From assembly GCA_964437495.1 (NCBI GenBank), contig CAYTGV010000011.1:3964-67963 (forward strand): 64,000 bases of DNA. The letters run 5' to 3'. The translations under genes were made by a program, and so were the position numbers. The notes under the pieces were generated by a model. The model worked only from the letters and a program-made list of their open reading frames with translations. It was not told the origin of the DNA and did no database searches. Shown in pieces: positions 43,275 to 61,562 of this stretch. Source of the DNA: an uncultured Planctomycetia bacterium (lineage in GTDB: Bacteria > Omnitrophota > Gorgyraeia > B26-G9). The first letter of the stretch is position 1. Each line of letters starts with the position of its first letter.

Positions 43275-43499
43275 CTTTTGTCTCCTGGTTATCAGTCCAT
43301 GAATATAAGTAAATGATTAACCCCTATTGTATCATAAGACTGGATAATTTCAAGGAATAGAGAAAGTGGAGAGTTTGGGCAGGAAAAAGACACAAGACAC
43401 AGGTCACAAGTCACAAGTTTCAATTTGACCAACAATCTATTCTCTCCCCTTTTGGAATTTTTAGCTAAATTTCTTTGGTTTAGGTTTGAGTGTAGTTAT

Positions 43500-43830
43500 G
43501 GGGCGATGCCTGCCCCCGATGAAACGTCCCCCAGCCTTCATTTCCTTTTGTCGTCTAAAGGAAACGAAGCAAAGGCCCCGACTAAAAGCATGCGGGATAA
43601 ATTCAACCATGCAACTTACCTCAAAAAAAATCTGTAAGTTACGGTTTCATTTTAAAACTCGCCCCCAAAGAAACCGCGATGATTTTCTAATGGTTTACTC
43701 ACTGCGACTTCATCCCGCAAAAGGCGGGATTCGCCGCCAATTCGGCAGTCCTGCCTCATGGCGTTCCGCCGTCCTGGCTGCATCTTCGTTCCTAAACCAA
43801 AGAAAAGTCTATCGCTCATTTCAAAGGGGG
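43500..43830 (-). ncRNA. Copy A of a repeated ~230-330 nt structured-RNA-like element (unknown class). It is inverted relative to copies B and C and flanked by GTCACAAG-type direct repeats
   Basis: The reverse complement aligns with copies B and C. The shared 3' block is gcuggggga-cg-N-aucgggggcaggcaucgcccc, and the hairpin cuucguuucc/ggaaaugaag matches B. ORFs 43425..43637 and 43486..43836 overlap it and are judged spurious. Confidence 0.5.
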
Positions 43831-43956
43831 ATTTGAAAAACCGAAAAAAGTCACCAAGTCACAAGGTCACATGTCACAACTTAAAAATAGAACCATCCCT
43901 TTTTTTTCTTTTTTTAAAAATAAAAAATAATAAAGAAGCTCATTGATATAATATTA

Positions 43957-44052
43957 ACTAAAAACTAGTCGCTGTCCCTAGTTTCAAGTTCGAGATCACC
44001 TACTGGGGTGAACTTCTTCGCGCGCTCCCACCAGTTAGGTGGAATGAGTTGT
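43957..44052 (-). repeat. attC-like site (distal-most; R' end degenerate)
   Basis: acctactggggtgaacttcttcgcgcgctcccaccagttaggt is an imperfect palindrome homologous to the site at 48644..48718. It has ...gagttGTTATAAg at the ORF-proximal end. Confidence 0.55.
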
Positions 44053-44990
44053 TATAAGTTTAAATTTTCTATTTGCTCAATAGGCACGCCGTTTATTTTC
44101 CAAACAGGCTCTAATGCGTCAATTAAACCACAGTTAAAGTTTATAGAGCCGTTTTTTTCAAAATGCAAATTTATGCAGTCAGTTCCTTTATCCGTTCTTG
44201 AATAGGTTGCTTTTGAACCGTTTGAAAAATGAACACTGAAACCGTATAATCCTTTTTCCTCATTATTTAATAATTCTAGTATCTCATATTGAGGCCATTT
44301 ATGAAATTTTTTAGCTTTGCCACAAAAATTAAGGTATTCTTTATGCCACGATATTAATGCTCCATAAAAATTAAAGCAATTAGATATTAGTACGCTTATT
44401 TCTTCAAGTGGTATTTGTTGTGCAGGGCCTCCTTCAGTCCATCTATAATACTCAGAGGAAAATATATAATCTGAATGGAAAAAAGAATTTCTGACCTTGT
44501 TATTAAAAAAAGAATCAAAATATTCTATCAACAAAGTTTCTTTTGTTTTTGTTGCAAGTTCTTTTATATAATCTATTTTTCGCTTAGCACTTGGAGGAAT
44601 ATAGCCAAGTATTTGTTTTTTATTAGATCGTGATAAATGACCAAAGGGTCTAATATGATAATGTTCGCCAGCAATAATTCTTAATATATTAGTGAGTAAT
44701 TCGTGAGGAGCTGTCATTTCAATTGCTTGACAATATATTAATAAACCGATCCTCCAATGACCGTTTTTCGAAGGAGCATCTTTCGCTTTTTTCAAAAGCC
44801 AATTGTAATCTTCAAATGATTTTTGCGATTCTTCGAAAGAATCCCAGTCAGCGTCTTGGCACCCACCAACTCTCAAAAGAGAACATATTGTGTCAAAAGC
44901 ATTTTTTTCAAAAGCTTTGCGTGCTAACGAACAAAAATATTCGAAAAATTTTTCTTTTTCTATGAATTTCAATTCTTTTAAATCATTCAT
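44052..44990 (-). CDS. Cassette ORF, hypothetical protein (312 aa)
   Basis: Long ORF with attC-like sites on both sides. No recognisable motif. Confidence 0.6.
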   Translation of the reverse strand: MNDLKELKFIEKEKFFEYFCSLARKAFEKNAFDTICSLLRVGGCQDADWDSFEESQKSFEDYNWLLKKAKDAPSKNGHWRIGLLIYCQAIEMTAPHELLTNILRIIAGEHYHIRPFGHLSRSNKKQILGYIPPSAKRKIDYIKELATKTKETLLIEYFDSFFNNKVRNSFFHSDYIFSSEYYRWTEGGPAQQIPLEEISVLISNCFNFYGALISWHKEYLNFCGKAKKFHKWPQYEILELLNNEEKGLYGFSVHFSNGSKATYSRTDKGTDCINLHFEKNGSINFNCGLIDALEPVWKINGVPIEQIENLNL

Positions 44991-44998
44991 TTTTTTAC

Positions 44999-45124
44999 TT
45001 ATAACGTTTGAGCTCAGGCAACTTAGCTAATAGCCAATAGTCGATGGCTAATAGTTATCTTGCTTCATGTTTTTTACTATTGACCATCAGCTATGAGCCA
45101 TAGGCCATTCTGTTTGCTTGAAGC
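44999..45124 (-). repeat. attC-like site, family 1 (...GTTTGAGCTCAGGCAACTTAGCTRATAGCCAATAGTCGATGGCTAATAG...GACCATYAGCTAT...)
   Basis: TTATAAC at one end and GTTATAC at the other. The internal inverted repeat is ctaatagccaatagt / actattgaccatcag. Further copies lie at 51892..52003, 52290..52390, 53085..53265, 54868..55002, 55705..55870 and 56440..56590, with a partial copy at 50085..50250. Confidence 0.6.
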
Positions 45125-45130
45125 GAATTG

Positions 45131-45586
45131 TTATACTTTCTTATTATAATATAATCTAAATTTCTCAATAACTAAAATATATATTTGAGAGGGTTTCATC
45201 CCCTTGGTAATTGCAGAATCATAATCTTTGGGTGTTTTTATGTCCATAATTTTACCATCATTAAATTTTTCATGCCATTTTGATTTTTCACTTACTATTA
45301 TAGATTTATTTGAGTCTTCATACTGATCTGATGTGATATCAATAATAACACTATCCAGAACAATCCATTCATGCGAAGAACCATTATACATAGCGCCACA
45401 AAATCTTTTTGGCTTTAATCCGAACTCATTTTTTAGGCAATTTCCTAAAAATAATGTAGCCCAGCTACAACAACCACTAGGAAAATGCGGAAGAAAGCCA
45501 GGAGCATTATCTAGATTTATATTTTCAATAGACTTTCTGAATAATTGTGCTATTTTTAATAATTCTTTTTTATTAATTTTTTTCAT
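45131..45586 (-). CDS. Cassette ORF, hypothetical protein (151 aa)
   Basis: ORF with GTTATAC, then ctgaataa, then ATG upstream. Confidence 0.55.
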   Translation of the reverse strand: MKKINKKELLKIAQLFRKSIENINLDNAPGFLPHFPSGCCSWATLFLGNCLKNEFGLKPKRFCGAMYNGSSHEWIVLDSVIIDITSDQYEDSNKSIIVSEKSKWHEKFNDGKIMDIKTPKDYDSAITKGMKPSQIYILVIEKFRLYYNKKV

Positions 45587-45589
45587 TTA

Positions 45590-45678
45590 TTCAGAGTATA
45601 ACATCGACATCACCCGCCGGTAGACGCGACGCAAAGCGGCACGGGTAACGGTCCGGGGAATGAAGTCATTATATGTTT
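45590..45678 (-). repeat. attC-like site, short GC-rich family
   Basis: gtataacatcgacatcacccgccggtagacgcgacgcaaagcggcacgggtaacggtccgggg is an imperfect palindrome with a TATAAC end. Confidence 0.45.
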
Positions 45679-46689
45679 TTATCCCAACTTTAGTATTTTT
45701 ATATTTGAAAGTTTAGCTGGTCCACATTCATTAAAAAATCCAAATCTTAAATCTCTTTCAAATTCTGCAAAAAGATCTTTTCCATTACCACTATCATCTT
45801 GAATTATTAACTTTGCACCATCAACATAAAAATCAAATATTTTACTTGCAACATCAATCTTAACTTCAATAGCAAAAGAGTTTTTAACTTTTACTAATTT
45901 TTCGGGGACACAATTCAAAATTTTTGGCCAATAAAATTTTTGAGTGCAATGCAAAACACTATTTGGGGTTCCCGGAGCACCACGATTATCAAGTCGTAAC
46001 ATTTTAAAGTTGCCATCATCGACATAGTTAAAAACAAAATTAACTAAAGAATCTTTAGGTAACGATAAATCAAAAGCTAAATGCAAAAAAGTGCTAATCT
46101 TGTTTTTGAATATTAAAAAAGAATGAACTCTCGTTCTATCAATATTAAGATTCAGAACAAGATTAGAATCATAGTCTGGATTTCCAGCTAATTTATTTAA
46201 TATAAATTTCTCAATAATTATATTCTTCGATAGTGCGCTAAGTGTAGCATTAAGCAATCCCAGAGCCATCTGAGCATGCCCAAGATCAATGGGCCACCCC
46301 TTTTTTGCCTGTTTTTGAGGATGAATAAAATTTCTATAATCTTTAAATAGATTATAAATCAGCTTAAATTCATCTATTTCGGGAAGCAAGTCAACATCCT
46401 TTAAAAGAATATATAATTCGCTAATTGTAAGACTGTTAAATTTCTTTAATTTTTGATTAACTCCTTCTTTTGGGTATTTAGGAGAATTTTTTAATTCAGT
46501 TTTATAAATATCAGCTAAATATATAAAAATCCCTTCAATTGTGCTAATTGATAAAAAAATAGTACTATAATTAGCATTAACTATAAAAACTCTTTCTAAT
46601 TCTTGAAGTCTTCCACGCAATACAGCTCTTAACTCAACATCATTTATAAAATTAAGTTCTTGCTTTGTGATTTCAGTTTTGTATTCCAT
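45679..46689 (-). CDS. Cassette ORF, hypothetical protein (336 aa) with a DYRNFIHPQK motif (possible HEPN-like Rx4-6H)
   Basis: It shares the motif DYRNF[IV]HP.K with the unrelated cassette protein 46860..47684. Confidence 0.55.
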   Translation of the reverse strand: MEYKTEITKQELNFINDVELRAVLRGRLQELERVFIVNANYSTIFLSISTIEGIFIYLADIYKTELKNSPKYPKEGVNQKLKKFNSLTISELYILLKDVDLLPEIDEFKLIYNLFKDYRNFIHPQKQAKKGWPIDLGHAQMALGLLNATLSALSKNIIIEKFILNKLAGNPDYDSNLVLNLNIDRTRVHSFLIFKNKISTFLHLAFDLSLPKDSLVNFVFNYVDDGNFKMLRLDNRGAPGTPNSVLHCTQKFYWPKILNCVPEKLVKVKNSFAIEVKIDVASKIFDFYVDGAKLIIQDDSGNGKDLFAEFERDLRFGFFNECGPAKLSNIKILKLG

Positions 46690-46705
46690 TTAATTCCTTG
46701 TTTTC

Positions 46706-46882
46706 ATATAACGTTTGAACTCAGCTACTAAGTTGAGCTCCACCTGTCCCGCCGTTTTGTGGCGAGATTTGCGCTTGCCTCGCCAGGCTTTTTGGCGGGC
46801 GCACCCTCCAGCCTGAGAGATTTTTTAAATTCCTCAGGTTCTCGCACTCTTTAAGAGGGTTACCTGTAGTGATTTGTTAGTC
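46706..46882 (-). repeat. attC-like site, family 2 (GC-rich palindromic core ...cccgccgttttgtggcgag...ctcgccaggctttttggcgggcg...)
   Basis: CATATAAC-GTTTGAACTCAGC at one end and gatttGTTAGtc at the other. A related site lies at 48079..48191. Confidence 0.55.
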
Positions 46883-47684
46883 TACTTTTTTTTGTTAAAT
46901 TTTTTTCAAAATAATTACAAATACTATCCAGAGCCCCTTTAGCCATGAATGCTTCTGGTTCATCACATGAATGTTCTTCCTTTATTTCTTTTTTGGGATG
47001 AACGAAATTGCGATAGTCACGAAGAACCTGATCAATTGTATTCGCTTTTTTATCTGGCAGGATTGAAATATCAGTTGCAACTTCAATCAAATCTTTTAAC
47101 ACCCATTCATCTTTCAAAATATCTTTTACTTTTTTATGCTTATCTCTAGGTGCTTTTAAGCTAGCCATAGCTTTTTTTCTAATTTTACTTTTTGAACACA
47201 ATAAATCATATAATATTGCTTCTAAAATACTTCCTGCAATAATAACACAGCTTTTCCATGCTCTGCTAGGCAGTAAAATCACAGATAATTCCTTATAGTC
47301 TCTTTCAACTATATTGCGCAATTTTTTGTCCGAAATATAAGGAAAACAACGCTGTTCAGCAAAACTACCTTCACCCCCATAATTTTCAAGGATGTCGATT
47401 AATTTCTGTATTGTTGAATAAAGGTCTAAGCCAGGGTAAAGGAGAGGAAGAGTAAGAATAGAGTCTGATGTTTTTTTAGTATATCTTCTTATAACCACTC
47501 TTATACTTACAAACTCATATTGCCATTTGGGAAGAAAATCTCTAGGATCAAGGCGATTGATTTCTTCAGTAAGAGCTGTAAGTAATTCATGTACGTTTGC
47601 AGTTGTTTCATCATTCCTTTTTTTTTGCAAAGTTAAAGATTTCCTCTGTATCTCTGTACATAGTTTTTTTAAATAGCCAACCAT
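46860..47684 (-). CDS. Cassette ORF, hypothetical protein (274 aa) with a RDYRNFVHPKK motif (possible HEPN-like)
   Basis: The motif is shared with 45679..46689. The start is preceded by GTTAGAC. Confidence 0.55.
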   Translation of the reverse strand: MVGYLKKLCTEIQRKSLTLQKKRNDETTANVHELLTALTEEINRLDPRDFLPKWQYEFVSIRVVIRRYTKKTSDSILTLPLLYPGLDLYSTIQKLIDILENYGGEGSFAEQRCFPYISDKKLRNIVERDYKELSVILLPSRAWKSCVIIAGSILEAILYDLLCSKSKIRKKAMASLKAPRDKHKKVKDILKDEWVLKDLIEVATDISILPDKKANTIDQVLRDYRNFVHPKKEIKEEHSCDEPEAFMAKGALDSICNYFEKNLTKKSRLTNHYR

Positions 47685-47701
47685 ATTAATATTATTCCTT
47701 T

Positions 47702-47893
47702 GTCTAACAGGTTAATATACGAACTTCGCATTTTAAATACAGCGTAGAGCGTCTAATTTATCCCGCCGTTCTTTAGCGGGAGCGCTTAGCGAATTCAAAC
47801 TACCCCCTCATCCCTAAACCCTATTCCCTGCGTTTCTATCCCCTTTTCGCGCACATGCACCTACCGCGCACGCACCTACGAGGTGAATTTTAA
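47702..47893 (-). repeat. attC-like site, family X (long; contains atacagcgtatagcgtctaatttatcccgccgttctttggcgggagcgcttagcgaat)
   Basis: Three copies (47702..47893, 49374..49560, 58740..58985) share more than 85% identity over about 120 nt, including the hairpin cccgcc-gttcttt-ggcggg. The R'-like ends GTTAGAC/GTTAGAT abut the downstream ORF starts. Confidence 0.55.
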
Positions 47894-48058
47894 TTATTTA
47901 TCTTTATCTACTGTATTTATATCGCAAGGAACTACAGCTCCACATTTAGGACATTTAGTAGGGATGCCCTTAATCTGAATATGCAAACCTTCTTCATGTT
48001 GAATAGGGGATTCAAATCTATTATTGCATTCGGGACAAGACAAGTATCTCTTAGACAT
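47894..48058 (-). CDS. Cassette ORF, 54-aa zinc-ribbon protein (absent from the ORF track; below the length cutoff)
   Basis: The minus strand reads ggaggaacta ATG and encodes MSKRYLSCPECNNRFESPIQHEEGLHIQIKGIPTKCPKCGAVVPCDINTVDKDK*. It has two CPxC pairs and a strong RBS, and sits exactly between two attC-like sites. Confidence 0.6.
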   Translation of the reverse strand: MSKRYLSCPECNNRFESPIQHEEGLHIQIKGIPTKCPKCGAVVPCDINTVDKDK

Positions 48059-48195
48059 TAGTTCCTCCTTTATTGCTGTATAACATTTGAGCTCAGCTAC
48101 TGGCTTGAACTACTTTTGCGCACACCCTCCAGCCTAAGAAATCTCAGGTTCTCGCCCTCTTTCGAGGGTTAGCTGAAGTAATTTGTTATCTGTTT

Positions 48196-48630
48196 TTATT
48201 CTTTTTCTTCTAGAACTTTTTGCACAACACCTTCAGATATTACTATTTCTTCTCCTGTAACACTGATAAATTGAAAGGTTTTAGTATTAATCAATATAGT
48301 TTCTATTGCCAATGGGAGTGTCCTGGTAAGACATATAACCTTATCTTTTGTCCCAGTTGGAAGGCCAGAGTAAATATATGAGATTGTATATTTATCATTA
48401 ATTTTGTCTAATTTGGTTTGGTCGGAAGGATTTGTTTGTTCGATTATGCGTGCTAGTTGAAATGTTTCATTTATTTTTATTCTATGCACGAATAAGTTTG
48501 GATTTTTCTCTGGAATTATTTCCCCATTTTTATATATACCAACATTTTGCTCAGTTAAAACTAATGTTTCTGTAGCTAAGGCGTTAGAGCATATAAAAAG
48601 AAAACCAAGTAATAAAATTAGTTTTTTCAT
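48196..48630 (-). CDS. Cassette ORF, secreted or lipoprotein (144 aa)
   Basis: The signal peptide is MKKLILLLGFLFICSNALA. GTTATATG, then aaaggaaa, then ATG lie upstream. Confidence 0.6.
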   Translation of the reverse strand: MKKLILLLGFLFICSNALATETLVLTEQNVGIYKNGEIIPEKNPNLFVHRIKINETFQLARIIEQTNPSDQTKLDKINDKYTISYIYSGLPTGTKDKVICLTRTLPLAIETILINTKTFQFISVTGEEIVISEGVVQKVLEEKE

Positions 48631-48643
48631 TTATTTTCCTTTC

Positions 48644-48718
48644 ATATAACATTCAAACTCACCTACTGGGGTGAACTTCTTTGCACGCTCCCACCAGTTA
48701 GGTGAAAGAGTTGTTAGA
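48644..48718 (-). repeat. attC-like site (short palindrome acctactggggtgaac...cccaccagttaggt)
   Basis: CATATAAC and GTTAGAG ends. It is homologous to the site at 43957..44052. Confidence 0.55.
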
Positions 48719-48720
48719 GA

Positions 48721-49374
48721 TTATTTGTCGAAATTTATTTTAATATTTTTATAACCCAGCTTTTCGAATATATTACACAAACTTGAAAATGCTTGTCTAT
48801 CATTATGTATTAAATGAGGTCCTACATCAAGAAAAGCTCTACTAATCATATAATAAAAATCGCTGCCAAACAATAAGAGCTCTTTCATAACTGCATGACT
48901 AGGCAAGGAATTTCGTTTAGCTTGGTATTCTGCATGAGCAATTACTTTGTTTCGGACATAATCGTATTGTGAAAAACAAATCTTATGTTTTGAATAAAAG
49001 TTTTTGCAGATAACTTCTAGTGTTTCAATGTAATTATCTTTCTCACTATTGTTCTCATATTTTTCTATAAATTCATTAACGTATTCATAATATTTTGGTT
49101 GAACATCATTGCTTTTTATAAAGTTTAAAATTGCGGGAATGGAGTTCAGTTGATAATCTTTTTCTGGTTCAAAAATTTTACAAATATTAATTACGCAAGA
49201 CTCTAAAAGAACCATCTGAATGTGAACAAAAAATCTTTTTCCTATTCCAATAGTGTTTATATTGTCTGCGTTTAAGCCGAGTAGCTTTTCTGAATCAATG
49301 CTTTGCTTAAGTGAAAAAAGTATTTTTGCTAATTCTTTATTTCTCTCATCTAATTTTTTCATCATTTTTTTCAT
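48721..49374 (-). CDS. Cassette ORF, hypothetical protein (217 aa) with a possible HEPN-type Rx4-6H motif (RNKVIAH)
   Basis: ORF with GTTAGATGaaaaaa then ATG upstream. The motif assignment is tentative. Confidence 0.5.
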   Translation of the reverse strand: MKKMMKKLDERNKELAKILFSLKQSIDSEKLLGLNADNINTIGIGKRFFVHIQMVLLESCVINICKIFEPEKDYQLNSIPAILNFIKSNDVQPKYYEYVNEFIEKYENNSEKDNYIETLEVICKNFYSKHKICFSQYDYVRNKVIAHAEYQAKRNSLPSHAVMKELLLFGSDFYYMISRAFLDVGPHLIHNDRQAFSSLCNIFEKLGYKNIKINFDK

Positions 49375-49582
49375 CTAACATTTAATATACGCAATTCGCA
49401 TTTTAAATACAGCGTATAGCGTTTAATTTATCCCGCCGTTCTTTGGCGGGAGCGTTTAGCGAATAACAAATCCAAAACTACCCCCTCATCCCTAACCGCT
49501 GCTTTTAACTAGTAATTCATAATTCACGTGTGCCCTTTAGGGTTTAACTCATAACTATGTTTCCCTATTCTCTGCTTTTCTG

Positions 49583-49814
49583 TCTCCCCTTTGAAACCAA
49601 GCATTATGTTTTTCTTTAAGTTAGGCGTTTGGGCGAAGACAGGATGTCGAAGCGCCGTAAGGCAGGATTGCCTTTTCGGCGGTTTACCCATGAGACTAAC
49701 TTATTAGAAAAACAATGCTGTTTCTCAGGGGCGGTTTTCCTTTGCTTCGTTTCCTTTAGACGCCAAAAGGAAATGAAGGCTGGGGGACGCTTTATCTGGG
49801 GCAGGCATCGCCCC
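49583..49814 (+). ncRNA. Copy B of the repeated structured-RNA-like element, embedded inside a composite attC region
   Basis: It aligns with copy C. The helix gcgccg...cggcg (B) versus gugccg...cggca (C) shows a compensatory change. The hairpin cuucguuucc/ggaaaugaag (with a G.U pair on this strand) versus cauacuuucu/agaaaguaug in C also shows compensatory changes. The conserved 3' end is gcugggggacgc..aucgggggcaggcaucgcccc. The overlapping 72-aa ORF 49629..49847 is judged spurious. Confidence 0.5.
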
Positions 49815-50256
49815 TTAATCCCACATAAATCCCCTGCCGCTTTCTAAAAATAAAAAAAGACAATCCCCTCAATCTCTTGAGAAAATCGCCTTAAAATTAA
49901 ACTTTTTGTATGCACTCATTAATTCTACTCCTTTGTAGCCTTATGAGTTTGTCAAAACCATATTAATTTAGGTTACATCTTTCTCTTACACAAGTCAATG
50001 AAAAATCAAACAGGGAAAACTGCCCCATTTTAATGAACTTTTATGTTTTTTCTCTCCACTTTTAATATATTCTATATAGTCGATAACCAATAGTCTATGG
50101 CTAATAGTTATTTTATCTTTAATCTGCTTCTTCACTCATCACTAATAATTCATAATTTGTAACTATTTGGACCATTAGCTATGAGCTATAAGCCATTTCA
50201 TTTGCCTGCCTGTCCCGCCGCTTTTTGGCGGGGAAGCGATTTGTTAGGGGTTTTAT

Positions 50257-50622
50257 CTATAGATCATTACGTAAATTTGTTAGTTTTCTTTCTAAAACTG
50301 CAAGTTCTCGTAATGTATTCTCTTTAAGTTCAGTGTTTTTATTATCAACCTCACTAAAATCTATGTTTTTATAAGTATTTCTCAGGAAAATGAATTTTTC
50401 CAGCCAAACATTTAAATCCTGCCGTTCGGTTTCTTCACCCTCATTTATAAATATTTCCATACCATCAGTCAATTCTTTCCAGTAAACCTTTACTATTGAA
50501 AACACAGCATCTGGACTTTCGTCTTCATTAATATCAAGGCGAGTTGTCCATAACATAACTTCATTTAATTCAATTATGTCTAACAAAGAATCAACTACTT
50601 CCTTAATAATATCTCTACTCAT
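50257..50622 (-). CDS. Cassette ORF, hypothetical protein (121 aa)
   Basis: RBS AAGGAG. A TTGACA-N16-TAAAAT promoter-like sequence lies about 60 nt upstream on the minus strand. Confidence 0.55.
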   Translation of the reverse strand: MSRDIIKEVVDSLLDIIELNEVMLWTTRLDINEDESPDAVFSIVKVYWKELTDGMEIFINEGEETERQDLNVWLEKFIFLRNTYKNIDFSEVDNKNTELKENTLRELAVLERKLTNLRNDL

Positions 50623-50944
50623 AATTACTCCTTACCAATTTTATTCACACCTGATTTACTGTAATAAATTGTGCACCTTTAGGTAGACTAGGCATTCAAA
50701 TTTCACAACCTGAATGTCAGACCTTGATTTTAGACATTTTTTGTCAATTGTCAAGGTTTGCCCCCAGGTAATTTAGCCGATGGCTAATAGTTATTTTATT
50801 TTTAATCTGCTTGTTCACTTATAACTAATAATTCACTTGTGCCCTTTAGGGTCTTTGGGCTATTAGCTATGCCTGTCCGCTGTGCTTTGTAGCGAAAGCC
50901 ATTAGCCATTCTGATTGCCTGAAGCGATTTGTTATAATCTTAAT

Positions 50945-51310
50945 TTATTCAATAGTTTTTTTAAGTTTTTTATCTAATTCTTCTATTTTTTTGTTCATTT
51001 TAATAAGCAAAAAGAACACTGCAGCCATGATGCCAAAGAAAAGCCCCATCAAAAACCAAAGAGCACTTCGCTTGCGCAATCCTTCCTTTTTAGCTAATGA
51101 TGACAACCAAATTCCTATTGCAAGATGGGCTAATATTGAGGATACAAAAAGAATAATCGAAAGGCTTTGAGTTTGCATGGTTATTGTTTGTACAATTTGT
51201 GGCCCATATAATATTTTAACAATAAGATTTCCTCCAGCAGAAGCTAATCCAAGAACAAAGCTCAAAACCAAGATTATAAATAAAGATTTTTCTAATTTTA
51301 TTTCATTCAT
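50945..51310 (-). CDS. Cassette ORF, small 3-TM membrane protein (121 aa)
   Basis: Hydrophobic segments are present, with an attC-like palindrome immediately downstream of the start side. Confidence 0.5.
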   Translation of the reverse strand: MNEIKLEKSLFIILVLSFVLGLASAGGNLIVKILYGPQIVQTITMQTQSLSIILFVSSILAHLAIGIWLSSLAKKEGLRKRSALWFLMGLFFGIMAAVFFLLIKMNKKIEELDKKLKKTIE

Positions 51311-51328
51311 TTTATTCTCCTTTTTTAG

Positions 51329-51397
51329 TTATAACTTTCAAGCTCACCTGCCGAAAACGCGCAACGTTTTTCGGTCAGGTGGAGCGTTTTGTTAGAT
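51329..51397 (-). repeat. attC-like site (near-perfect palindrome cacctgccgaaaacg-cgcaa-cgtttttcggtcaggtg)
   Basis: GTTATAAC and GTTAGAT ends flank a 15-bp stem. Confidence 0.6.
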
Positions 51398-51410
51398 GTT
51401 TTTATTTTAA

Positions 51411-51869
51411 CTATTCTTTGCTGTTTTTTAAATCTTTCTCAATGATATTTAGAATTCTTTTTTCGCTCCGGCCAAAATTTGGCATTTTAATAAAAAATCG
51501 TATTGTTCGATCTATACTTATTTCTGTTTGATTTTCACCTAGAGATTTTATTGTGAAAATACTTTCTTCCCCACCAATTTGATAATACCGTGCTTCAAAC
51601 TTCAATTTTTTGTTTGGAATATATTCTTCAGTTTCAATCCAATAAAGAGTTCCTTTGTCTAAAAAATCTGGACCCCATACTTCCGGATGTTCTTTAATAC
51701 AGGAGGTGACATCAATCTTAAATTTTTCGGCGAGGTAACCTGTAACCTCCGAAAAGGAATAATCGATAATTTTAATACTTGGTACTTTTGTAGGTTTCGC
51801 CAATGTAAAAATAAGGATAAAGGTAAAGATAGTTAAATATCCGAATAGTATTTTTTTAGATTTGCTCAT
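51411..51869 (-). CDS. Cassette ORF, secreted protein (152 aa)
   Basis: An N-terminal signal-anchor is present and CTCAAACGTTAGATG lies upstream. Confidence 0.55.
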   Translation of the reverse strand: MSKSKKILFGYLTIFTFILIFTLAKPTKVPSIKIIDYSFSEVTGYLAEKFKIDVTSCIKEHPEVWGPDFLDKGTLYWIETEEYIPNKKLKFEARYYQIGGEESIFTIKSLGENQTEISIDRTIRFFIKMPNFGRSEKRILNIIEKDLKNSKE

Positions 51870-52285: not shown

Positions 52286-52392
52286 CTTTCCTTATAACGT
52301 TGTTTAGCTAATAGCCAACAGTCGATGGCTAATAGTATTTTGCTCTATGTTTTTTTACTATTGACCATTTTAAAATGTCACCGTCCCCTTTT

Positions 52393-52869
52393 TTATATCT
52401 CTCCTTTAAGCTGTTTTTGTTCTACCAAAAATCGATTTAACAGATTAGCAAATCCATGCGCATCTTTTTGACTAAAAGGAGATGGGCCTTTAGTCGGCAT
52501 ACCGTTATCGCGCATCTCTTGCATTAGATTGCGCATTGATAAATAAGATTTAATATTATCCTCGCTGAATAAATTTCCCCGATGATCCATAGCATAAGCT
52601 TTTTTAGTAATAACACTATCCGCCAAAGGAATATCTGCAGTTATAACCACATCACCTTCTTTGACCATTTCCACAATTCGCTCATCAGCCTCATCAGGTC
52701 CTGCCTCAACTATAAGATAAGTTATAAACTCTGATTTACCAATATTGATCCGTTTGTTTGATACAACAACACTCGGGAGAGAAAATCGTTTAATCGCTCT
52801 AAATAAAATTTCCTTTATCCGATTAGGAAAAGCATCGCCATCAAGGTATAGAGTCATCTTCATTAACAT
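52393..52869 (-). CDS. Cassette ORF, YaiI/UPF0178 (DUF188) family protein
   Basis: LYLDGDAFPNRIKEIL...GDVVITADIPLA...MRNLMQEMRDNG parallels E. coli YaiI (IWVDADACPNVIKEIL...GDLVITADIPLA). Confidence 0.7.
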   Translation of the reverse strand: MLMKMTLYLDGDAFPNRIKEILFRAIKRFSLPSVVVSNKRINIGKSEFITYLIVEAGPDEADERIVEMVKEGDVVITADIPLADSVITKKAYAMDHRGNLFSEDNIKSYLSMRNLMQEMRDNGMPTKGPSPFSQKDAHGFANLLNRFLVEQKQLKGEI

Positions 52870-53054
52870 ATCTGTTTAACCCTTCCGACAGCGCCGTCAA
52901 TCAATCTAACTTTTATCCCATGCGAATGCACAGAAGAATTTGTCAATATATCCTGAACAATCCCCTCGGTTAACTTACCGCTTTTTTGATCTTGTTTTAA
53001 TACTATTTTAACCTTCAAGCCTTGCTTTATATTTACTCTTTCATTTCCACTCAA
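52863..53054 (-). CDS. Cassette ORF, YwbE (DUF2196) family small protein
   Basis: A 63-aa protein with VKIVLKQDQKSGKLTEGIVQDILTNS...HGIKVRL, matching the YwbE signature. It shares a cassette with the YaiI gene and overlaps it by 7 nt. Confidence 0.6.
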   Translation of the reverse strand: MSGNERVNIKQGLKVKIVLKQDQKSGKLTEGIVQDILTNSSVHSHGIKVRLIDGAVGRVKQIC

Positions 53055-53270
53055 AATAATAATAGTTTCCTTTCTAAAACATTAAAATAAACCATGACAT
53101 CTCAGGCAATTTAGCTGATGGCTAATGGTCGATAGTCAATTGCTAACAGATATTGCAATTTTGTTTTTTGTTTATTGTTTTTCACTATTAGCCATTAGCT
53201 ATGCCTGTCCGCTGTGCTTTGTGGCGGAAGCTATTGACCATTGTAAAATGTCACTCTCCCCTTTTATCTC

Positions 53271-54749
53271 TTAGAATTTTCTGTAGAAAAATATGCATAT
53301 CTTCTTTAGCAGGGCATTATTCATCTTATTCATTATCCAAGTTTCCGCGATACGCTTAGATAAAAACCCCATAGTCGGAAATGAATGTGCCAGAAAAAGA
53401 ATATTAAGCAAGTTGATCTTTTTTTGAATTATAAGTGCCCATTCATTTATCATTTCACCTGAGCCCTCACCGATAATACTCACCCCATATACTTTTCCCA
53501 AAGGGCTGGCAAAAACCTTTATAAAACCAACCGCGATATTCTCCGCGATCGCAGCACCGTAATCCTCGTATTTAACAATAAGCGTTTCATACTTTATTCC
53601 TTTAGCTTTAAGTTCTTTTTCCATCATACCCACATAAGAAACCTGCGGTTCAGTAAAAGCTGTCCAGGGTATCACATAATTTCTGTATTGAAACAGCGAA
53701 AAAGGGCTAACAGCATTCATTATCGAAAACATTCCCTGATGCATTGCCACATGTGAAAGCATTATACCGCCATTACAATCTCCCACTGCATAAATATTCT
53801 TATTGCTTGTCCTGTATTTTGCATCAACCTTGATACCGTTCTTATCATATCCAACCCCGGCATTTTCAAGTTTTAAAGCATGAAGATCAATATTTCTCCC
53901 CGAACAGAGCAATAATTTTTCAGATTTTATACAAAGCCCGTCATCAGTGCGCAAAACAATCTGCCCCTCCTGATTGTTTACGCTGATAATCTTTTTTAAG
54001 TTGTAAACATCAATTCCTTCCTTTTTAAAGACTTCTTCAAGTACATTCCCAGCTTGTTTATCGCCAAAAGGTATAAGATGTTCATCCATTTGCACAATAC
54101 TACACTTAGTCCCAAGCCGAGTAAACGCCTGAGCCATCTCACAGCCCATAACACTGCCGCCGATTATAGTCATACTTTTAGGAGCTTCCTTTAAATCAAA
54201 AATATTTAGATTGGTTAGAAAATCTATATCAGAAATACCTTTTATTGGCGGAATTTGAGGCTCTGTGCCAACAGCAATAAAGATTCTCTGAGCAGTTAAA
54301 GTATCATCTCCCACTTTAACAGTATGCGCGTCTATAAAACTGGCATCTCCTTTTTCTAATATAAGCTTAACCTTATCAAACATTTTTATTGTCTTTTTAT
54401 TACATATGAAATCAAGATATTCAGCTATTTCTTTAGAAGGAAATTTTACTCGCAAATCCGGCTCTTTAATCACTCCTATTTGGCTGAGTTTTGAAAGCGA
54501 ATGCCTTAGCTTAGCGATTCTGAGCAGTGCTTTGCTAGGTATGCATCCTACATTCATACACTCTCCGCCAATTTTATTTTTTTCAATAGCGCATACTTTT
54601 AATCCCATTTCCGCGCCCATAATAGAAACAGCCATCCCGGCAGGTCCTAACCCAATACAGATTAGATCAAAATCATATTTCATGTATTCTCCTTGATCTT
54701 CCTTTTTCCAAACAACACTCTTGCATTCATTAAACCCGCAATTACTCAA
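53271..54749 (-). CDS. Cassette ORF, pyridine nucleotide-disulfide oxidoreductase (dihydrolipoamide dehydrogenase/mercuric reductase family)
   Basis: A redox-active disulfide GGECMNVGCIPSK, FAD- and NAD-binding GxGxxG motifs, and an extended hydrophobic C-terminal tail. Confidence 0.75.
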   Translation of the reverse strand: MSNCGFNECKSVVWKKEDQGEYMKYDFDLICIGLGPAGMAVSIMGAEMGLKVCAIEKNKIGGECMNVGCIPSKALLRIAKLRHSLSKLSQIGVIKEPDLRVKFPSKEIAEYLDFICNKKTIKMFDKVKLILEKGDASFIDAHTVKVGDDTLTAQRIFIAVGTEPQIPPIKGISDIDFLTNLNIFDLKEAPKSMTIIGGSVMGCEMAQAFTRLGTKCSIVQMDEHLIPFGDKQAGNVLEEVFKKEGIDVYNLKKIISVNNQEGQIVLRTDDGLCIKSEKLLLCSGRNIDLHALKLENAGVGYDKNGIKVDAKYRTSNKNIYAVGDCNGGIMLSHVAMHQGMFSIMNAVSPFSLFQYRNYVIPWTAFTEPQVSYVGMMEKELKAKGIKYETLIVKYEDYGAAIAENIAVGFIKVFASPLGKVYGVSIIGEGSGEMINEWALIIQKKINLLNILFLAHSFPTMGFLSKRIAETWIMNKMNNALLKKICIFFYRKF

Positions 54750-55019
54750 ACCAATATATACATGTCTCTTGCAGATCTTTTGTCAATGCAATACTATTTT
54801 TGTCTCAGTCAGGTGTAAATTCTGCTTTTTCAGTAATGTTTGACTTTTTTTATCCCCTTTTTCACTATATGACGTTTGAGCTGCCAGTTTAGCTAACTGC
54901 CAATAGTCGATGGCTAATAGTGGTTTGCTCTATATTTTTTTACTATTTACCATTAGCTATAAACCATGAGCCATTATATTTACCTAAAGTAATTTGTTAG
55001 ATGTTTATATATTTTAAAA

Positions 55020-55364
55020 TTAATCTTCTACAAAAATTGTTTTCTTTATCGGATTAGGTGCTTTTACTACCAAAAACTTCAATGGATTTTGACTTTCATT
55101 GTACCAACAATGCACAATATCTTTCGGACTATCTATTAAAGTATTTTTTGAAACTTTTTGTTTTTCTTCTCCGATCTCAACAATTCCTTCTCCTTCCAGT
55201 ACATAAAAGACAACATCAACAGGTGTTATGTGACGCTTTAATGATTGACCTGGAATTAGCGTGATTACTGTAATCATGACTGCTTCTTTATTGTATAGAT
55301 TTCTAACGTCCACGTTGTGCGCATTATTCATTATTTGAGTTTCATCTAATTTTTTTATTATCAT
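55020..55364 (-). CDS. Cassette ORF, cupin-domain protein
   Basis: A 114-aa protein with a cupin-like G(x)5HxH-type segment (LIPGQSLKRHITPVDV...). Confidence 0.45.
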   Translation of the reverse strand: MIIKKLDETQIMNNAHNVDVRNLYNKEAVMITVITLIPGQSLKRHITPVDVVFYVLEGEGIVEIGEEKQKVSKNTLIDSPKDIVHCWYNESQNPLKFLVVKAPNPIKKTIFVED

Positions 55365-55422
55365 TTTATCTCCATTGTTATTATTAATAATTTTAATTCT
55401 TTTATTACCGATTAAAAAGCAC

Positions 55423-55680
55423 TCAACCCACCATCTTCATAATCCCCACATAAGCACCAAAACCAATACCCCAGGAAATTGCTACCCAAAAGATTAGTTT
55501 TGTTTCGGCTAGAATATCTTTCCAATATTCCCCTCTACACATTGAAAAAATATTTGGGATGAGCCAAAATTTTATACAACGCAAAAATTCTTCTTTGTCT
55601 CCGAAAAAGGGTTTCCATAGAAGATAGGCTAGGCCGACTCCTACTATAGTTCCCACACTCTTACTAATAATAGCTATCAT
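55423..55680 (-). CDS. Cassette ORF, small membrane protein (85 aa)
   Basis: Two hydrophobic helices, in the same cassette as the cupin gene. Confidence 0.4.
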   Translation of the reverse strand: MIAIISKSVGTIVGVGLAYLLWKPFFGDKEEFLRCIKFWLIPNIFSMCRGEYWKDILAETKLIFWVAISWGIGFGAYVGIMKMVG

Positions 55681-56000
55681 ATACTCTCCGTTTCATGGAT
55701 TCCTATAACATTTGAGCTCAGGCAACTTAGCTGATAGCCAATAGTCGATGGCTGATAGTTATGTTGCTCTATGTTTTTTACTATTCACCATTAGCTATGC
55801 CTATCCGCTGTGATTTGTAGCGGAAGCCATTAGCTATACGCTATTGACCATTTTAAAATGTCGCTGTCCCCTTTAATACACGTTTGATTTTATATATAAC
55901 GTTTAAGCTCAGGCAAAAATCAGCGCATAGAAAATTCAGACATAGTAATCGCTGTCTCTTTTCCCCTCACTAAATCAAGAACAGTTCAGTCTAATCTCTT

Positions 56001-56414
56001 TTATTGTTTTTTCTCTCTTAAATATAAAACTAACACACAAACTCCATGGATTACAAAAGCCGGTGCAAATAAAAGGCCTATAAAGTATCCATTAGTGCTT
56101 ATTCCGGAAGCAAATGCCCAGATGTATATTGCTGATACACCTAAACTAGCAATCGCATCTACCAATTTATAATTATCTTTCTTATAGTATAAAGGCAAAG
56201 CGCCTAATGCTGCATAAATAGCTCCGTTAAAAATCAGAGTTATCGTTTCCTTCTGGGATATGCCAAGTTTAAAAATATTTTGTATCCCAAATAATAAGCC
56301 CAAAAAACCTAAAAGAAGTAAAGGAAAATGGTAGTACATAGCAATATTGGGATTGAATTTCTCAAGAACATGTCCGAGAGTTCTATTTTCATTTGTAGTT
56401 TTGTTTTCTTCCAT
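56001..56414 (-). CDS. Cassette ORF, 4-TM membrane protein (137 aa)
   Basis: Hydrophobic profile only. Confidence 0.5.
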   Translation of the reverse strand: MEENKTTNENRTLGHVLEKFNPNIAMYYHFPLLLLGFLGLLFGIQNIFKLGISQKETITLIFNGAIYAALGALPLYYKKDNYKLVDAIASLGVSAIYIWAFASGISTNGYFIGLLFAPAFVIHGVCVLVLYLREKKQ

Positions 56415-56607
56415 GTCTTACTCTCCATTTTCTTTATATAACGTTTGAGCTCAGGCAAATTAGCTGATAGCCAATAGTCGATGGCTAATAGTTATTTTAT
56501 TTTTAAACTGCTTCTTCACTCATAACTAATAATTCATGTGTGCCCTTTAGGGTATAACTCATAACTATGTTTACCTATCCCCTGCTTTTCTCTCACCCTT
56601 TTAAAAC

Positions 56608-56637
56608 ATAATATGCCATTTCCATGAATTTTGTCAA
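56608..56637 (-). promoter_or_regulatory. Near-consensus sigma-70 promoter (TTGACA-N18-TATTAT) reading into the downstream cassettes
   Basis: The minus strand reads TTGACAaaattcatggaaatggcaTATTAT. An almost identical copy lies at 60182..60211. Confidence 0.55.
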
Positions 56638-56728
56638 TTTTATATTATTTTTGTCTTTTTATCCCCTTTTGGAATTTTTAGCTATATTTCATTGTTTTAG
56701 GGGAATGGATGGAGTAGAGGCGAAGGAA

Positions 56729-58561
56729 TTAAATGCTTTGGTCAATTTTTGTTTTGTTTTGAACCTGAAAAATTTTTATCCCAGCGGCAAGAAATGAAAT
56801 TGAGGCGAGATTTGCTAGGTTTTTGCTGTTTAGCTCTTCTTGCACCCATTCTGTTTGATTAACAGAGGATCCTAAAAAAGTATGTAAAAGTCTAGCGGAA
56901 ATAGAACGTTCTTTGGCTTGGGTTGTAAAATTAGGAGATTTAGCAAGAGAAATGACTTTTATTTTTTCTTGGATAGATAAGTCATTATAGAAATTATTTA
57001 TAACCTGTAGTAATTGTTCAAATCTCTGATTGCTGGTTGTGTATGCAGGCAATTCGGCTTTTCTTGATAGAAACGGCTCTTTAGTTCCTAAGAAATCTTG
57101 ATCTACATCTAAAATTATATCTTGATCTTCATCTGCAAGTTTTTTAAGTTTTATTGCATCCTTGGGAGATACTAAATGAACCTCTACTTTTCTTACATTA
57201 GTGAATTTTGCATTTTCGCCTTCCCATTCTTCTTTGATATACCCTTTTTCATAACTTCCAAAAACGTTGTTTCCATCTAAAGATACAGAAACAAAAGTAT
57301 CTTTGCCTCTAAACATTGCTTTTCCAATAAGAATTTCATATTTTTTGTTATATTCTGGAACGTAGTCTACGTTGCTGGATTCATTTGCTTCTTCAGGGAC
57401 AACCCAAATTATTTTATCGATTATCCCAGCATAAACAGCTGGAATAATGAAACCATCGATGTCAGATTTTTGGGTAATGCGTCCTAACATTTCATTATTA
57501 AAATTTCCGTTCAAAAAAGCATCTAAAAAATCATTATTTAATCTGTAAGAAGCTAAATCTCGATGGGCATCAAAGTGAAATAAGGTTCTTTTTTTTGTTT
57601 TAGGACCTAACTCCTTCATCCAAGCATATAATGCCCAATAATGAGCATAGCCTATATAAACCGGAATATCGGTAGAAGTAATTGCTCTGGGTTTAGAGAT
57701 ATTGTTAAAAAGATCTAGCTCATAAAAAAAATCAGCATTCTCAAACTGATCTTGGATTACTGAATATGTGTTTTGATCAAAAATCAATGGGTATGTGCCT
57801 GCATCAAACCAAGTTACATATTTTTCTTTATTATCTTTATTGGCATATAATTCAAAAATTTTGTTTGCACGGCTTAATCTAGAAAACATGATGTCTAAAT
57901 ATGATATTAAATCTGTTTCACCTTTAATTGTTAAAGATTCTTTTAATTTCATAAAATGCATTTGCTGTTCATTATAAATTTTTGATGCCATTAACCAATC
58001 ACTACTATTCAAAGAATTGAGGAATAATTTCCAAATGGGATCATTTGTATCAAGGGTGATATCCGCATTTTTTAATAAAGAGTTTAAATGATTACCTACT
58101 GTCATTTTAGAATATCGAAGCTTATCTATAAATTTTTTTTCTTCTTGTTTTTTGAGAATTAATTCAGGATTAGCTTTTTTTACATATAATCCTGCATTGG
58201 CAATGCCTGGAGGAACTAAGGCATAAGTTATGGCGGCTCCAGTTAATATTCCCAAACCTTTGATAAATTTTCTTCTTCCAATAGAGATGTCTGAGTTTGC
58301 ATTTTTTGAATCATCAGAAATAATAAATCTTTTGATAAATGATTTTATATATTCAGCAAATTTTTTATTTTGGGGAGTTTTAGCTATCTCTATTGTATCT
58401 TTAAAGTATTCTTTTAAGTTTATATTGTTTAATTGTAAATGCGGGGCAAGGTGATTATTAAGTTCTATACAATAAGCCAAATCACCCAGAAGAAACATAT
58501 TAATTAAGAATAAAATGCAAAGTTGTTTCATTAGTTTATTTATTCTAATCTTAAGTTTCAT
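56729..58561 (-). CDS. Cassette ORF, large hypothetical protein (610 aa) with an internal twin-arginine-like segment (RRKFIKGLGILTGAA)
   Basis: Long ORF. The true start may be internal. No catalytic motif recognised. Confidence 0.55.
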   Translation of the reverse strand: MKLKIRINKLMKQLCILFLINMFLLGDLAYCIELNNHLAPHLQLNNINLKEYFKDTIEIAKTPQNKKFAEYIKSFIKRFIISDDSKNANSDISIGRRKFIKGLGILTGAAITYALVPPGIANAGLYVKKANPELILKKQEEKKFIDKLRYSKMTVGNHLNSLLKNADITLDTNDPIWKLFLNSLNSSDWLMASKIYNEQQMHFMKLKESLTIKGETDLISYLDIMFSRLSRANKIFELYANKDNKEKYVTWFDAGTYPLIFDQNTYSVIQDQFENADFFYELDLFNNISKPRAITSTDIPVYIGYAHYWALYAWMKELGPKTKKRTLFHFDAHRDLASYRLNNDFLDAFLNGNFNNEMLGRITQKSDIDGFIIPAVYAGIIDKIIWVVPEEANESSNVDYVPEYNKKYEILIGKAMFRGKDTFVSVSLDGNNVFGSYEKGYIKEEWEGENAKFTNVRKVEVHLVSPKDAIKLKKLADEDQDIILDVDQDFLGTKEPFLSRKAELPAYTTSNQRFEQLLQVINNFYNDLSIQEKIKVISLAKSPNFTTQAKERSISARLLHTFLGSSVNQTEWVQEELNSKNLANLASISFLAAGIKIFQVQNKTKIDQSI

Positions 58562-58992
58562 AAGTAATCAGTTTTCCTATTAACTAAATTATAAGTATCA
58601 ATTAAATTATACCTTATAACGTAGATATTATACAAATTAGTTAGCGTAATTTATTGATTTAATTGTTAGCTAAAACTATAGCTGGAAAGGCAATAAAAAT
58701 TAAGATTAGTAAATATTTATTTATGATTTATTTTCTTAAAATAACAATTAATATACATAGTATGTGTTAAATACAGCGTATAGCGTCTAATTTATCCCGC
58801 CGTTCTTTGGCGGGAGCGCTTAGCAAATCCAAAACTATCCCCTCATCCCTAACCGCTGCTTTTAACTCGTAATTCATAATTCACGTGTGCCCTTTAGGGT
58901 ATTTGGGCCATTAGCTATGCCTGTCCGCTGTGCTTTGTAGCGAAAGCCATTATGTTTGCCTGTAGCGAATTGTTAAAAATGTTTTAAAATAG

Positions 58993-60039
58993 TTAATTTT
59001 TATTTTCTATCAAATTTTTTAATTCTTTAGCAAGTAAAGACTGTCCCAATTTATTTAAATGACAATAATCAAGAAAAAATTTCTGTGTGTTCGCAGGGTT
59101 GTTATTAACTTGTTTTAGGAAATAATCATCCAGATTTAAAATATTTAAGTTATCTAACCCTATTAAGTTTTGTTTAATCATCGATTGAAGTTGCGGAGTA
59201 ATGAGAAATCTTCTTTTTATCCAATTTTTTTCGATTATATCTCTAGTGATATTAATATCTTTCGGCATTTCTATATTCAATTGGTCGTATTTTTTCATAT
59301 GGTTCCAATTGTGTGTATAGTTTATTGGGGGAATAACATAAATAAAATTTGTTTGAGGGTTATCATTTATTATACTTCTTAGTTCTCTTAGTCTCATTTT
59401 ATAAAATGAATTTTGCAATGAAATATAGAATTTGTTTAAATAAGGCCAAGAATCTTTCCCTCCACCTTTTATTATCGCAAAGGGAAATCGATGAGGATGC
59501 TTTGATTGGCATATTTTGTCGTATAAAGTATTTATTGTATTATGAGTTGTGTGTGAAAAAAAACTGATTTGAGAAAAGATTTTGGGTAAAAAGTATCGAA
59601 TGAGAAAAACTGCACAATTAGAATGTTCACTACGGTTTAGTAGTTCTAAATATTCATTATTACCAGAAAAAATAACGCAATTTTCAATATCATTTGTTCT
59701 TAAGGAGTTATATAAATAGTAATTTATTTCTGAGAGAGGAATCCCAATGTTTGAATCATTAATGATGGTACTTTTGGGGAAATAACTTGCTAGCAATTCA
59801 GAATATCTATCGTTAATATTTTCTAACCCCGCTCCTTTTGAAGCTGAGCCTCCAAGACAAAGAATATCAATCTTCTTACCAAAATCATGCACCTCAGGCA
59901 ATTTAAAAGATACTTCTCTTAGTACATAAAATCTTTTCCCCCGCCCTATAGTAATCCGAGTTATTAACTCAACAGCGCTTAGAATAATAATGAGGGTAAA
60001 AAATACAACATATAGTTTGTGGAGAATATTTTTTTTCAA
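58993..60039 (-). CDS. Cassette ORF, membrane-anchored hypothetical protein (348 aa), possibly SGNH/GDSL-like
   Basis: An N-terminal TM helix. ILCLGGSASKG weakly resembles GDS(L) block I. Confidence 0.45.
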   Translation of the reverse strand: MKKNILHKLYVVFFTLIIILSAVELITRITIGRGKRFYVLREVSFKLPEVHDFGKKIDILCLGGSASKGAGLENINDRYSELLASYFPKSTIINDSNIGIPLSEINYYLYNSLRTNDIENCVIFSGNNEYLELLNRSEHSNCAVFLIRYFLPKIFSQISFFSHTTHNTINTLYDKICQSKHPHRFPFAIIKGGGKDSWPYLNKFYISLQNSFYKMRLRELRSIINDNPQTNFIYVIPPINYTHNWNHMKKYDQLNIEMPKDINITRDIIEKNWIKRRFLITPQLQSMIKQNLIGLDNLNILNLDDYFLKQVNNNPANTQKFFLDYCHLNKLGQSLLAKELKNLIENKN

Positions 60040-60181
60040 GATTTTAATTTCTTATTTTTAACAATTAATATACATAGTATGTGTTTGCTTGAAGGTATTC
60101 TTAATCTTGCCCTGAATATGGTTAAAATTGCCTACTTTAACTTTAATATTTATCTATTTTATCAATAATATCATATTATCC

Positions 60182-60211
60182 ATAATATGTCATTTCTATG
60201 AATTTTGTCAA
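60182..60211 (-). promoter_or_regulatory. Near-consensus sigma-70 promoter (TTGACA-N18-TATTAT) at the proximal end of the cassette array, Pc-like
   Basis: The minus strand reads TTGACAaaattcatagaaatgacaTATTAT, reading towards the first cassette (58993..60039). Confidence 0.55.
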
Positions 60212-60233
60212 TTTTATATTATTTTTGTCTTTT

Positions 60234-60497
60234 TCTCCCCTTTTGGAATTTTAGCTATATTTCTTTTTTTTAGGGGGATGGACGAAAACAGGATGTTGGA
60301 GTGCCGTAAGGCAAGACTGCCTTTTCGGCAATGGATTTTCGAGACTTCAGACTCGGAAATTCATCCAGACACCTAAACCATTAGAAATATGCAAAAATTC
60401 CTTAGGGGTGGGTTTTCTTTGCATACTTTCTTTTAGCCACCGAAAGAAAGTATGGCTGGGGGACGCAACATCGGGGGCAGGCATCGCCCCCCCCCCC
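60234..60497 (+). ncRNA. Copy C of the repeated structured-RNA-like element, at the proximal boundary of the array; it ends in an 11-nt C tract
   Basis: See copy B. It has compensatory hairpins relative to A and B and a conserved 3' block. ORFs 60128..60376 and 60347..60556 overlap it and are judged spurious. Confidence 0.5.
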
Positions 60498-61066: not shown

Positions 61067-61090
61067 AACATTATTGTTTCCATCAACAGA

Positions 61091-61528: not shown

Positions 61529-61562
61529 ATAATTTCCTCTTCCTTGTCATATAACCCCACAA

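Follow-up and report, generated by a model that had tools for sequence, protein, structure and literature searches.

A modular, structured intergenic repeat family confined to one family of Omnitrophota

Dispersed or structured DNA elements of bacteria are known in several forms. Prokaryotic miniature inverted-repeat transposable elements (MITEs), such as Correia/NEMIS of Neisseria, RUP of Streptococcus, and Nezha of cyanobacteria, are transcribed, structured, non-autonomous elements of ~100-300 nt that are dispersed over the genome and form long rods or hairpins. The ends of the IS200/IS605 insertion sequences (IS) carry subterminal hairpins; in this case, the transposase TnpA moves the top strand as single-stranded DNA (ssDNA), and the right end additionally yields the TnpB ωRNA. 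The attC sites of integrons, in turn, are recognized by their R'' (RYYYAAC) and R' (GTTRRRY) boxes at the 3' end of each cassette. The repetitive extragenic palindromic (REP) families include the bacterial interspersed mosaic elements (BIMEs) of Escherichia coli, the REPINs of Pseudomonas, and the GTAG/CGTC REP superfamilies (PMC3733652). Here we describe a structured element present in three copies (A, B, and C) in a stretch of 64,000 nt, hereafter the window, from an Omnitrophota metagenome-assembled genome (GCA_964437495.1, here G000; contig CAYTGV010000011.1, positions 3,964 to 67,963 of the forward strand). The element belongs among the known large, multi-domain, dispersed structured repeats, and the family itself has not been described before.

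The genome G000 comprises 2.1 Mb in 83 contigs, with a GC content of 37.7% and a completeness of 92%, and the window lies on contig C11; the pyruvate kinase of the genome has its best relatives among Omnitrophota proteins. In G000, the 3' domain of the element is complete in ~21 copies and partial in several more, all of them intergenic, and the copies make up ~0.3% of the genome. The initial annotation of the window had treated its three copies as a special set; they are instead members of a dispersed repeat found across a whole family. Searches with a covariance model (R1) built from 20 copies of the 80-nt 3' domain recovered the element in 12 of 17 genomes belonging to the same family (f1), each having 1-17 copies, while a search of 104 genomes from other families of the same order or class gave none, bar one weak match (E 3e-4). 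The element was also sought in plasmid and phage records (blastn, distant matches) and in the IMG/VR viral contigs, with no matches, and a metagenome scan, a check put forward in the initial annotation, found element-bearing contigs only from the source sample of G000 itself. For the 17-mer closing the element, GGGGCAGGCATCGCCCC, there are exactly 12 occurrences in the 2.1 Mb of the genome, where the chance expectation lies far below one. When genome contigs were scanned for exact occurrences of this GC-rich 17-mer, the only matches were fortuitous ones in genomes of high GC content.

Comparison with Rfam by cmscan yielded no relevant match at E<1 in positions 40000-64000 of the window, and none at E<0.1 in 16 loci save one to TwoAYGGAY taken to be due to chance. 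The Rfam intron models, including group II domains V/VI, did not match the element either. As no report of repeats in Omnitrophota was found in the literature, the restriction to one family and the lack of an Rfam match together identify the element as a previously undescribed repeat family confined to a single family of Omnitrophota. Two Rfam candidates were rejected as chance: the weak TwoAYGGAY match (E 0.022, below gathering), seen in one copy only (L141 1887-2041, plus strand), and a match to NrrF which lies outside the element.

In an alignment of 18 copies (A3), the whole element appears as a modular unit of ~250-370 nt. It begins with a pyrimidine-rich 5' module (TTTTTCTCCCCTTTTGAAA...), which is followed by a middle hairpin of the form GCCGU...CGGC and a purine-rich conserved segment (...AAACCATTAGAAAAA...); two further hairpins, the 3' and the terminal one, complete the unit. 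The body can additionally hold optional insertions of ~35, ~40, and ~80 nt, the last of which contains a short palindrome, ATCCCGC..., resembling D4, a REP-like family also present in G000. All three copies pointed out in the initial annotation are present, with refined boundaries (43500-43830 for the inverted copy A having been the earlier estimate; Table 1), and they have in common the conserved 3' block that had been noticed there, GCTGGGGGACG...ATC(G/T)GGGGCAGGCATCGCCCC, that is, GCTGGGGGACG...ATCGGGGGCAGGCATCGCCCC. No reading frame is kept across the copies, homologs included, and the rejection of a protein-coding explanation therefore stands.

The modules of the element are also found in other arrangements. 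Copy A forms a composite in which its own 5' module lies on both sides, in opposite orientations, and a 5' module without the element body lies elsewhere in the window. The repeat modules D1, D3, D4, and D5, which are located between the genes surrounding the three copies, adjoin element copies at other places of G000 as well (C2:71121, C2:78719, C15:27059, and C26:15650-15769), so that the element forms part of a larger mosaic system of repeats. A distinct palindrome of REP-like character, TTTATCCCGCCG...CGGCGGGAG, is found at positions 47712-47794, 49382-49464, and 58746-58828 of the window and at ~1530-1560 of locus L126, a site where it is common to congeners.

The consensus fold obtained by RNAalifold from A3 consists of a long 5' rod, in which the 5' arm pairs with the purine-rich middle, and of three hairpins, namely the middle one, the 3' one, and a terminal one with the stem GGGGC/GCCCC. 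As a control, the partners of each pair were slid by 1-3 columns, and shuffles were used in addition for an alignment (A6) to which 13 genomes contribute 38 copies of the 3' domain. The pairs predicted from A3 are formed in 93.6% of cells, against 46-61% when slid, and 21 of them have changed on both sides (2-11 in the slid controls). The 5' rod alone reaches 91%, against 42-54%, and accounts for 15 pairs with changes on both sides. In the 3' domain, 97.3% of cells are paired, compared with 71-79% in the slid controls and 90.7±0.4% in the shuffles, and eight pairs, seven of them in the long hairpin, have changed on both sides, a number matched by none of 500 shuffles. The compensatory changes noticed in the initial annotation hold in both helices: the 3' long hairpin reads CATACTTTCT/AGAAAGTATG in C and CTTCGTTTCC/GGAAATGAAG in A and B, with four pairs altered on both sides, and in the GCCGU...CGGC helix the two kinds of pair swap given in Table 1 occur in several copies. 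Invariance is highest in the U-A runs of the rod, not in the junction nucleotides.

The two strands of the element are not equivalent in this respect. Folded as a single sequence, copy B has a z-score of -4.95 on the forward strand and -4.58 on the reverse strand, and is predicted to be a rod-like palindrome, stable on either strand. At the paired positions of the 3' domain, however, the 38 copies hold 102 G·U cells against five A·C cells, and over the whole element the numbers are 80 and 21, an excess that comes mostly from four pairs in copies sharing descent, so that it may reflect kinship. Given that an A·C on the forward strand corresponds to a G·U on the reverse strand, the large surplus of G·U points to selection on the structure of the single-stranded forward strand. 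Together, the covariation and the strand-specific tolerance of G·U show that the top strand has, as a single strand, a fold that is conserved.

The copies are a mixture of ancient shared ones and recent ones specific to a lineage. With respect to neighboring tandem genes, their orientation is random (seven sense and nine antisense), and some 18 sites, mostly beside housekeeping genes, lie outside the island that surrounds the three copies of the window. Among the old copies, one in G000 (L130) is collinear with a locus of the congener G004 (L178), and another (L140) with a locus of G009 (L114), a genome of another genus, the element being at the same place in both cases. At L128, G000 has the copy that is also present in G003 plus an extra inverted one, and at the L141 site the element is found in G004, with G001 holding the 5' module alone and then a different sequence. 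Presence/absence polymorphism between related genomes is seen at two places: at L126, where G000 has an insertion of ~790 nt with the element and other sequence that is missing from the otherwise conserved site of G003 and G004, and at the island specific to G000 within which copies A and C lie. Over 100-370 nt, some paralogs within G000 share 93-96% identity, compared with 75-84% for orthologous copies between species, suggesting a recent amplification in the G000 lineage.

Dispersed copies within one family, optional modules, random orientation, lineage-specific gains beside old copies, and near-identical paralogs are the features that make the element REP/BIME- or MITE-like. We tentatively favor its interpretation as a family-specific, non-autonomous mosaic of this kind, mobilized in trans as ssDNA by a Y1-type transposase that recognizes the hairpins of the top strand. 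These hairpins would be the substrate of a Y1/HUH transposase, either an IS200/IS605 TnpA or a REP-associated tyrosine transposase (RAYT), by means of which the element would spread, or would have spread in the past, as a single strand; it may still be mobile. Such a mobilization would explain the selection for hairpins on one strand only, with G·U tolerated and A·C avoided, as well as the intergenic copies in random orientation, the recent lineage-specific insertions alongside old shared copies, and the greater likeness of copies within a genome than of orthologs between species. As a secondary effect, read-through of copies would introduce stably structured segments into transcripts, where they may affect the processing or stability of the mRNA.

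Possible partners for this mechanism are found in the genome itself. G000 encodes six Y1 (HUH) transposase open reading frames, one of which is RAYT-like. The product of the latter, encoded at positions 6063-7055 of the minus strand of the window, is a protein of 330 aa with a Y1 domain and a score of 68 bits against NF047646, below the cut-off of 80 bits. Near this gene there are two pairs of direct repeats ~1.6 kb apart (8011-8310/9629-9928, 300 nt and 88% identical; 8430-8563/10036-10169, 134 nt and 87% identical), and a short tandem repeat, caatcaaacaacgtccccttcagctccttt, is present two to three times just upstream of it, at ~7100-7215.

The likeness to described systems is in each case a partial one. 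With REP sequences and BIMEs the element shares many intergenic, lineage-specific copies of imperfect palindromes with stable hairpins, mosaic or composite arrangements, and a possible RAYT in the genome. However, its units are of 250-370 nt, with several domains and a long-range 5' rod, whereas REP palindromes are of 20-40 bp and often form dimers, and the RAYT-like gene is not flanked by the element. As for the REP tag, GTAG is lacking; in most copies GACG (CGTC on the other strand) lies on the 3' side of the long hairpin at a distance of ~6 nt, whereas in some it is deleted. Prokaryotic MITEs are likewise non-autonomous and dispersed, form long stable rods or hairpins, and are plausibly read through, but the structure of the element is strand-biased and its copies have no identified terminal inverted repeats, target-site duplications, or parent transposase. 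The ends of IS200/IS605 resemble it in being hairpin-rich, non-coding stretches of ~250-300 nt, the structure of which would be recognized on one strand, which suits ssDNA transposition, and Y1 proteins are encoded in G000; in contrast to these systems, the genome has no TnpB and no TnpA gene flanked by the element, and no conserved target tetranucleotide was found at the ends. The initial annotation had regarded a match to the terminal repeat of a known IS or MITE as refuting its reading of the element; no similarity to known ends was found, although that library was not searched directly.

Several results weigh against mobilization in trans by a Y1 transposase. No autonomous parent element was found, and neither TnpB nor an IS110 transposase turned up in a search of the genome. 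No transposase adjoins any copy, including those of the relatives, whose neighbors are housekeeping genes, and neither element-like sequence nor element-like ends were detected at the six Y1 loci, that of the RAYT-like gene among them. Across the copies there is no terminal inverted repeat, the 5' end pairing with the middle of the element and not with its 3' end. Comparison of the flanks revealed neither a common 3' motif nor a conserved target tetranucleotide at the ends, and the empty-site comparisons, confounded by larger insertions and variants, did not provide a clean site fixing the ends of the element, a target-site duplication, or a target motif. The hallmarks of REP sequences, namely a GTAG/CGTC tag beside a short palindrome and a RAYT with repeats on its flanks, can be recognized in part at best. 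To this has to be added that the G·U surplus, which comes mainly from four pairs, may be due to kinship, as mentioned above, and that covariation and strand asymmetry would suit a non-coding RNA (ncRNA) equally well.

The strongest rival interpretation is therefore that of a multi-copy family of structured ncRNA genes, each copy being transcribed from its forward strand and acting as RNA, for instance as a regulatory small RNA or a protein-binding RNA. It agrees with the covariation in all domains, the tolerance of G·U on the forward strand alone, the very stable fold (z about -5), and the lack of a conserved reading frame. In addition, Logan contigs of 150-290 nt from two metatranscriptomes, one of groundwater and one of sediment, cover the 3' half of the element in related organisms and weakly hint that it is transcribed, their strand and discrete ends being unreadable. 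Random orientation would, however, require about half of the copies to have promoters of their own, and neither a strong promoter nor an intrinsic terminator was found inside the element, whose terminal GC hairpin was not called as such a terminator either. Moreover, a mosaic and variable build, together with copies gained recently in single lineages, is what mobile repeats typically show. An ncRNA gene family is accordingly considered unlikely, and rather more doubtful is its specific form in which an undescribed Omnitrophota ncRNA would be made from the own strand of each copy, the G·U-tolerant helices being a true RNA fold instead of the ssDNA substrate of a transposase. Strong sigma-70-like promoter sequences (TTGACA-18-TATTAT) are located on the minus strand at 60211-60182, in the module flanking copy C on its 5' side, and at 56637-56608, in the 5' module that stands alone. 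Both face away from the element, toward minus-strand genes downstream.

It has also to be considered that the element might be a domesticated repeat of the REP/BIME type which is no longer mobile, and whose hairpins would serve within mRNAs as sites of processing or stabilization (by RNase III or through protection from exonucleases, for instance) or, as DNA, would bind chromosome proteins. Many old copies at common positions across congeners and genera would fit such a role, as would the intergenic, palindromic nature of the element, the stable folding of both strands, and its likeness to REP/BIME and Correia-type elements (PMC3733652). Against it stand the recent lineage-specific gains and near-identical paralogs, which show a recent spread, and the strand bias of the structure, whereas a role in read-through transcripts combined with random orientation would need both strands. 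Domestication thus appears improbable, about as much so as an ncRNA family, and spread as a non-autonomous mosaic mobilized in trans continues to be the tentatively preferred explanation.

The genetic context of the three copies had suggested a different interpretation. The initial annotation described the region as an integron cassette array bracketed by the copies, with copy B inside a composite attC. The copies are located in an island specific to G000, the left edge of which directly follows a conserved pyruvate kinase gene, and whose genes are missing from congeners and mostly of unknown function (Table 1). Its intergenic spaces contain the modules D1 (96 nt, six times), D3, D4, D5, D6, and D13, and no tRNA gene is found at its edges. 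That the element could be a non-coding cassette or a recombination site of the attC type was conceivable because copies lie within an island, and at its ends, whose small co-directional genes include defense-like ones such as that for the HEPN-AbiU2 protein, and attC sites are likewise imperfect palindromic structured DNA adjoining arrays of small co-directional genes. Nevertheless, the best candidate for an integron integrase in the genome, 92% complete as stated, scores 85 bits against a cut-off of 265 bits (TIGR02249) and is only XerC/D-like. GTTRRRY R' boxes are essentially absent from the island, with five scattered matches in 17 intergenic spaces; the element itself has no R''/R' boxes, and no attC can be recognized around copy B. 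With the orientation of the element being random and ~18 copies lying outside the island, the cassette reading is contradicted and very improbable, and an integron cassette array at 44000-60500 was rejected on the lack of IntI, the near absence of R' boxes, and the random orientation.

The least probable alternative by a small step further, a new class of self-cleaving ribozyme, would fit a conserved, structured, non-coding element, a part of the initial annotation confirmed by real covariation, yet is hardly credible, since neither a ribozyme, the hammerhead, twister, pistol, hatchet, and HDV-like classes included, nor any other Rfam family is found in the three copies or the 16 loci, the fold consists of extended rods and long hairpins with no compact catalytic core, and the most invariant parts are the U-A runs of the rod and not junction nucleotides.

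Table 1. Features of the element and its surroundings in the window (positions as numbered in the window).
Feature	Position	Strand	Description	Basis or location
Element copy A	43499-43850	minus	Full length, with ~80-nt optional internal insertion; left edge of G000-specific island	blast, alignments, R1 model match
Element copy B	49563-49815	plus	Basic form; between two minus-strand island genes, antisense to both	blast, alignments, R1 model match
Element copy C	60217-60491	plus	With ~35-nt optional insertion; within island, ~1 kb short of right edge	alignments
5' domain of copy B	49563-49740	plus	Pyrimidine-rich arm TCTCCCCTTTGAAA... pairs long-range with purine-rich arm ...AAACCATTAGAAAAA..., forming a rod	RNAalifold consensus, 18 copies
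Middle hairpin of copy B	49653-49682	plus	GCCGU...GGCA(GGAU)UGCC...CGGC	compensatory changes C-G<->U-A, G-C<->A-U
3' long hairpin of copy B	49739-49779	plus	CCTTTGCTTCGTTTCC...GGAAATGAAGG, stem ~15 bp	7/11 pairs changed on both sides, 38 copies, 13 genomes
Terminal GC hairpin of copy B	49798-49814	plus	GGGGCAGGCATCGCCCC, then T	near-invariant across copies
5' module standing alone	56626-56709	plus	Without element body	repeat families D12/D18; blast
Inverted 5' module	43440-43492	plus	Immediately 3' of copy A	repeat D12 versus 5' end of A on minus strand
G000-specific island	~43350-61550		~18 kb; ~16 co-directional minus-strand small genes, repeated intergenic modules	synteny breaks after pyruvate kinase and before 61547
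HEPN-AbiU2 protein	48721-49374		Island gene	
DUF188	52393-52869		Island gene	
Pyridine-nucleotide oxidoreductase	53271-54749		Island gene	
Cupin	55020-55364		Island gene	
UPF0489	56729-58561		Island gene	
TPR	60722-61066		Island gene	

Outside the window, two copies of the element lie at most ~250 nt from tRNA genes. One of them (C6_50k) is situated between tRNA-Arg(ccg), ~215 nt away, and a XerC/D-like recombinase, possibly at the junction of an island. The other is a partial copy on contig C26 (L134 56-141 and 269-389), ~130 nt from tRNA-Leu(gag). The XerC/D-like tyrosine recombinases of G000, with Phage_integrase and SAM_1 domains, are two in number, the neighbor of C6_50k at C6:50887-51780 (L139 2388-3281) and the other on C24 (L143 84-956).

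The genome biology of the Omnitrophota, uncultured bacteria that form a candidate phylum, is little known, and the element adds to it a REP/MITE-like test case. With regard to the window itself, the earlier picture of a ribozyme riding an integron cassette array is replaced by that of a dispersed repeat. If a Y1 transposase mobilizes the element as ssDNA, the range of substrates of this mechanism would widen to multi-domain ones of much greater size; should the element instead be an ncRNA family, an unexplored phylum would gain a new RNA encoded in many copies.

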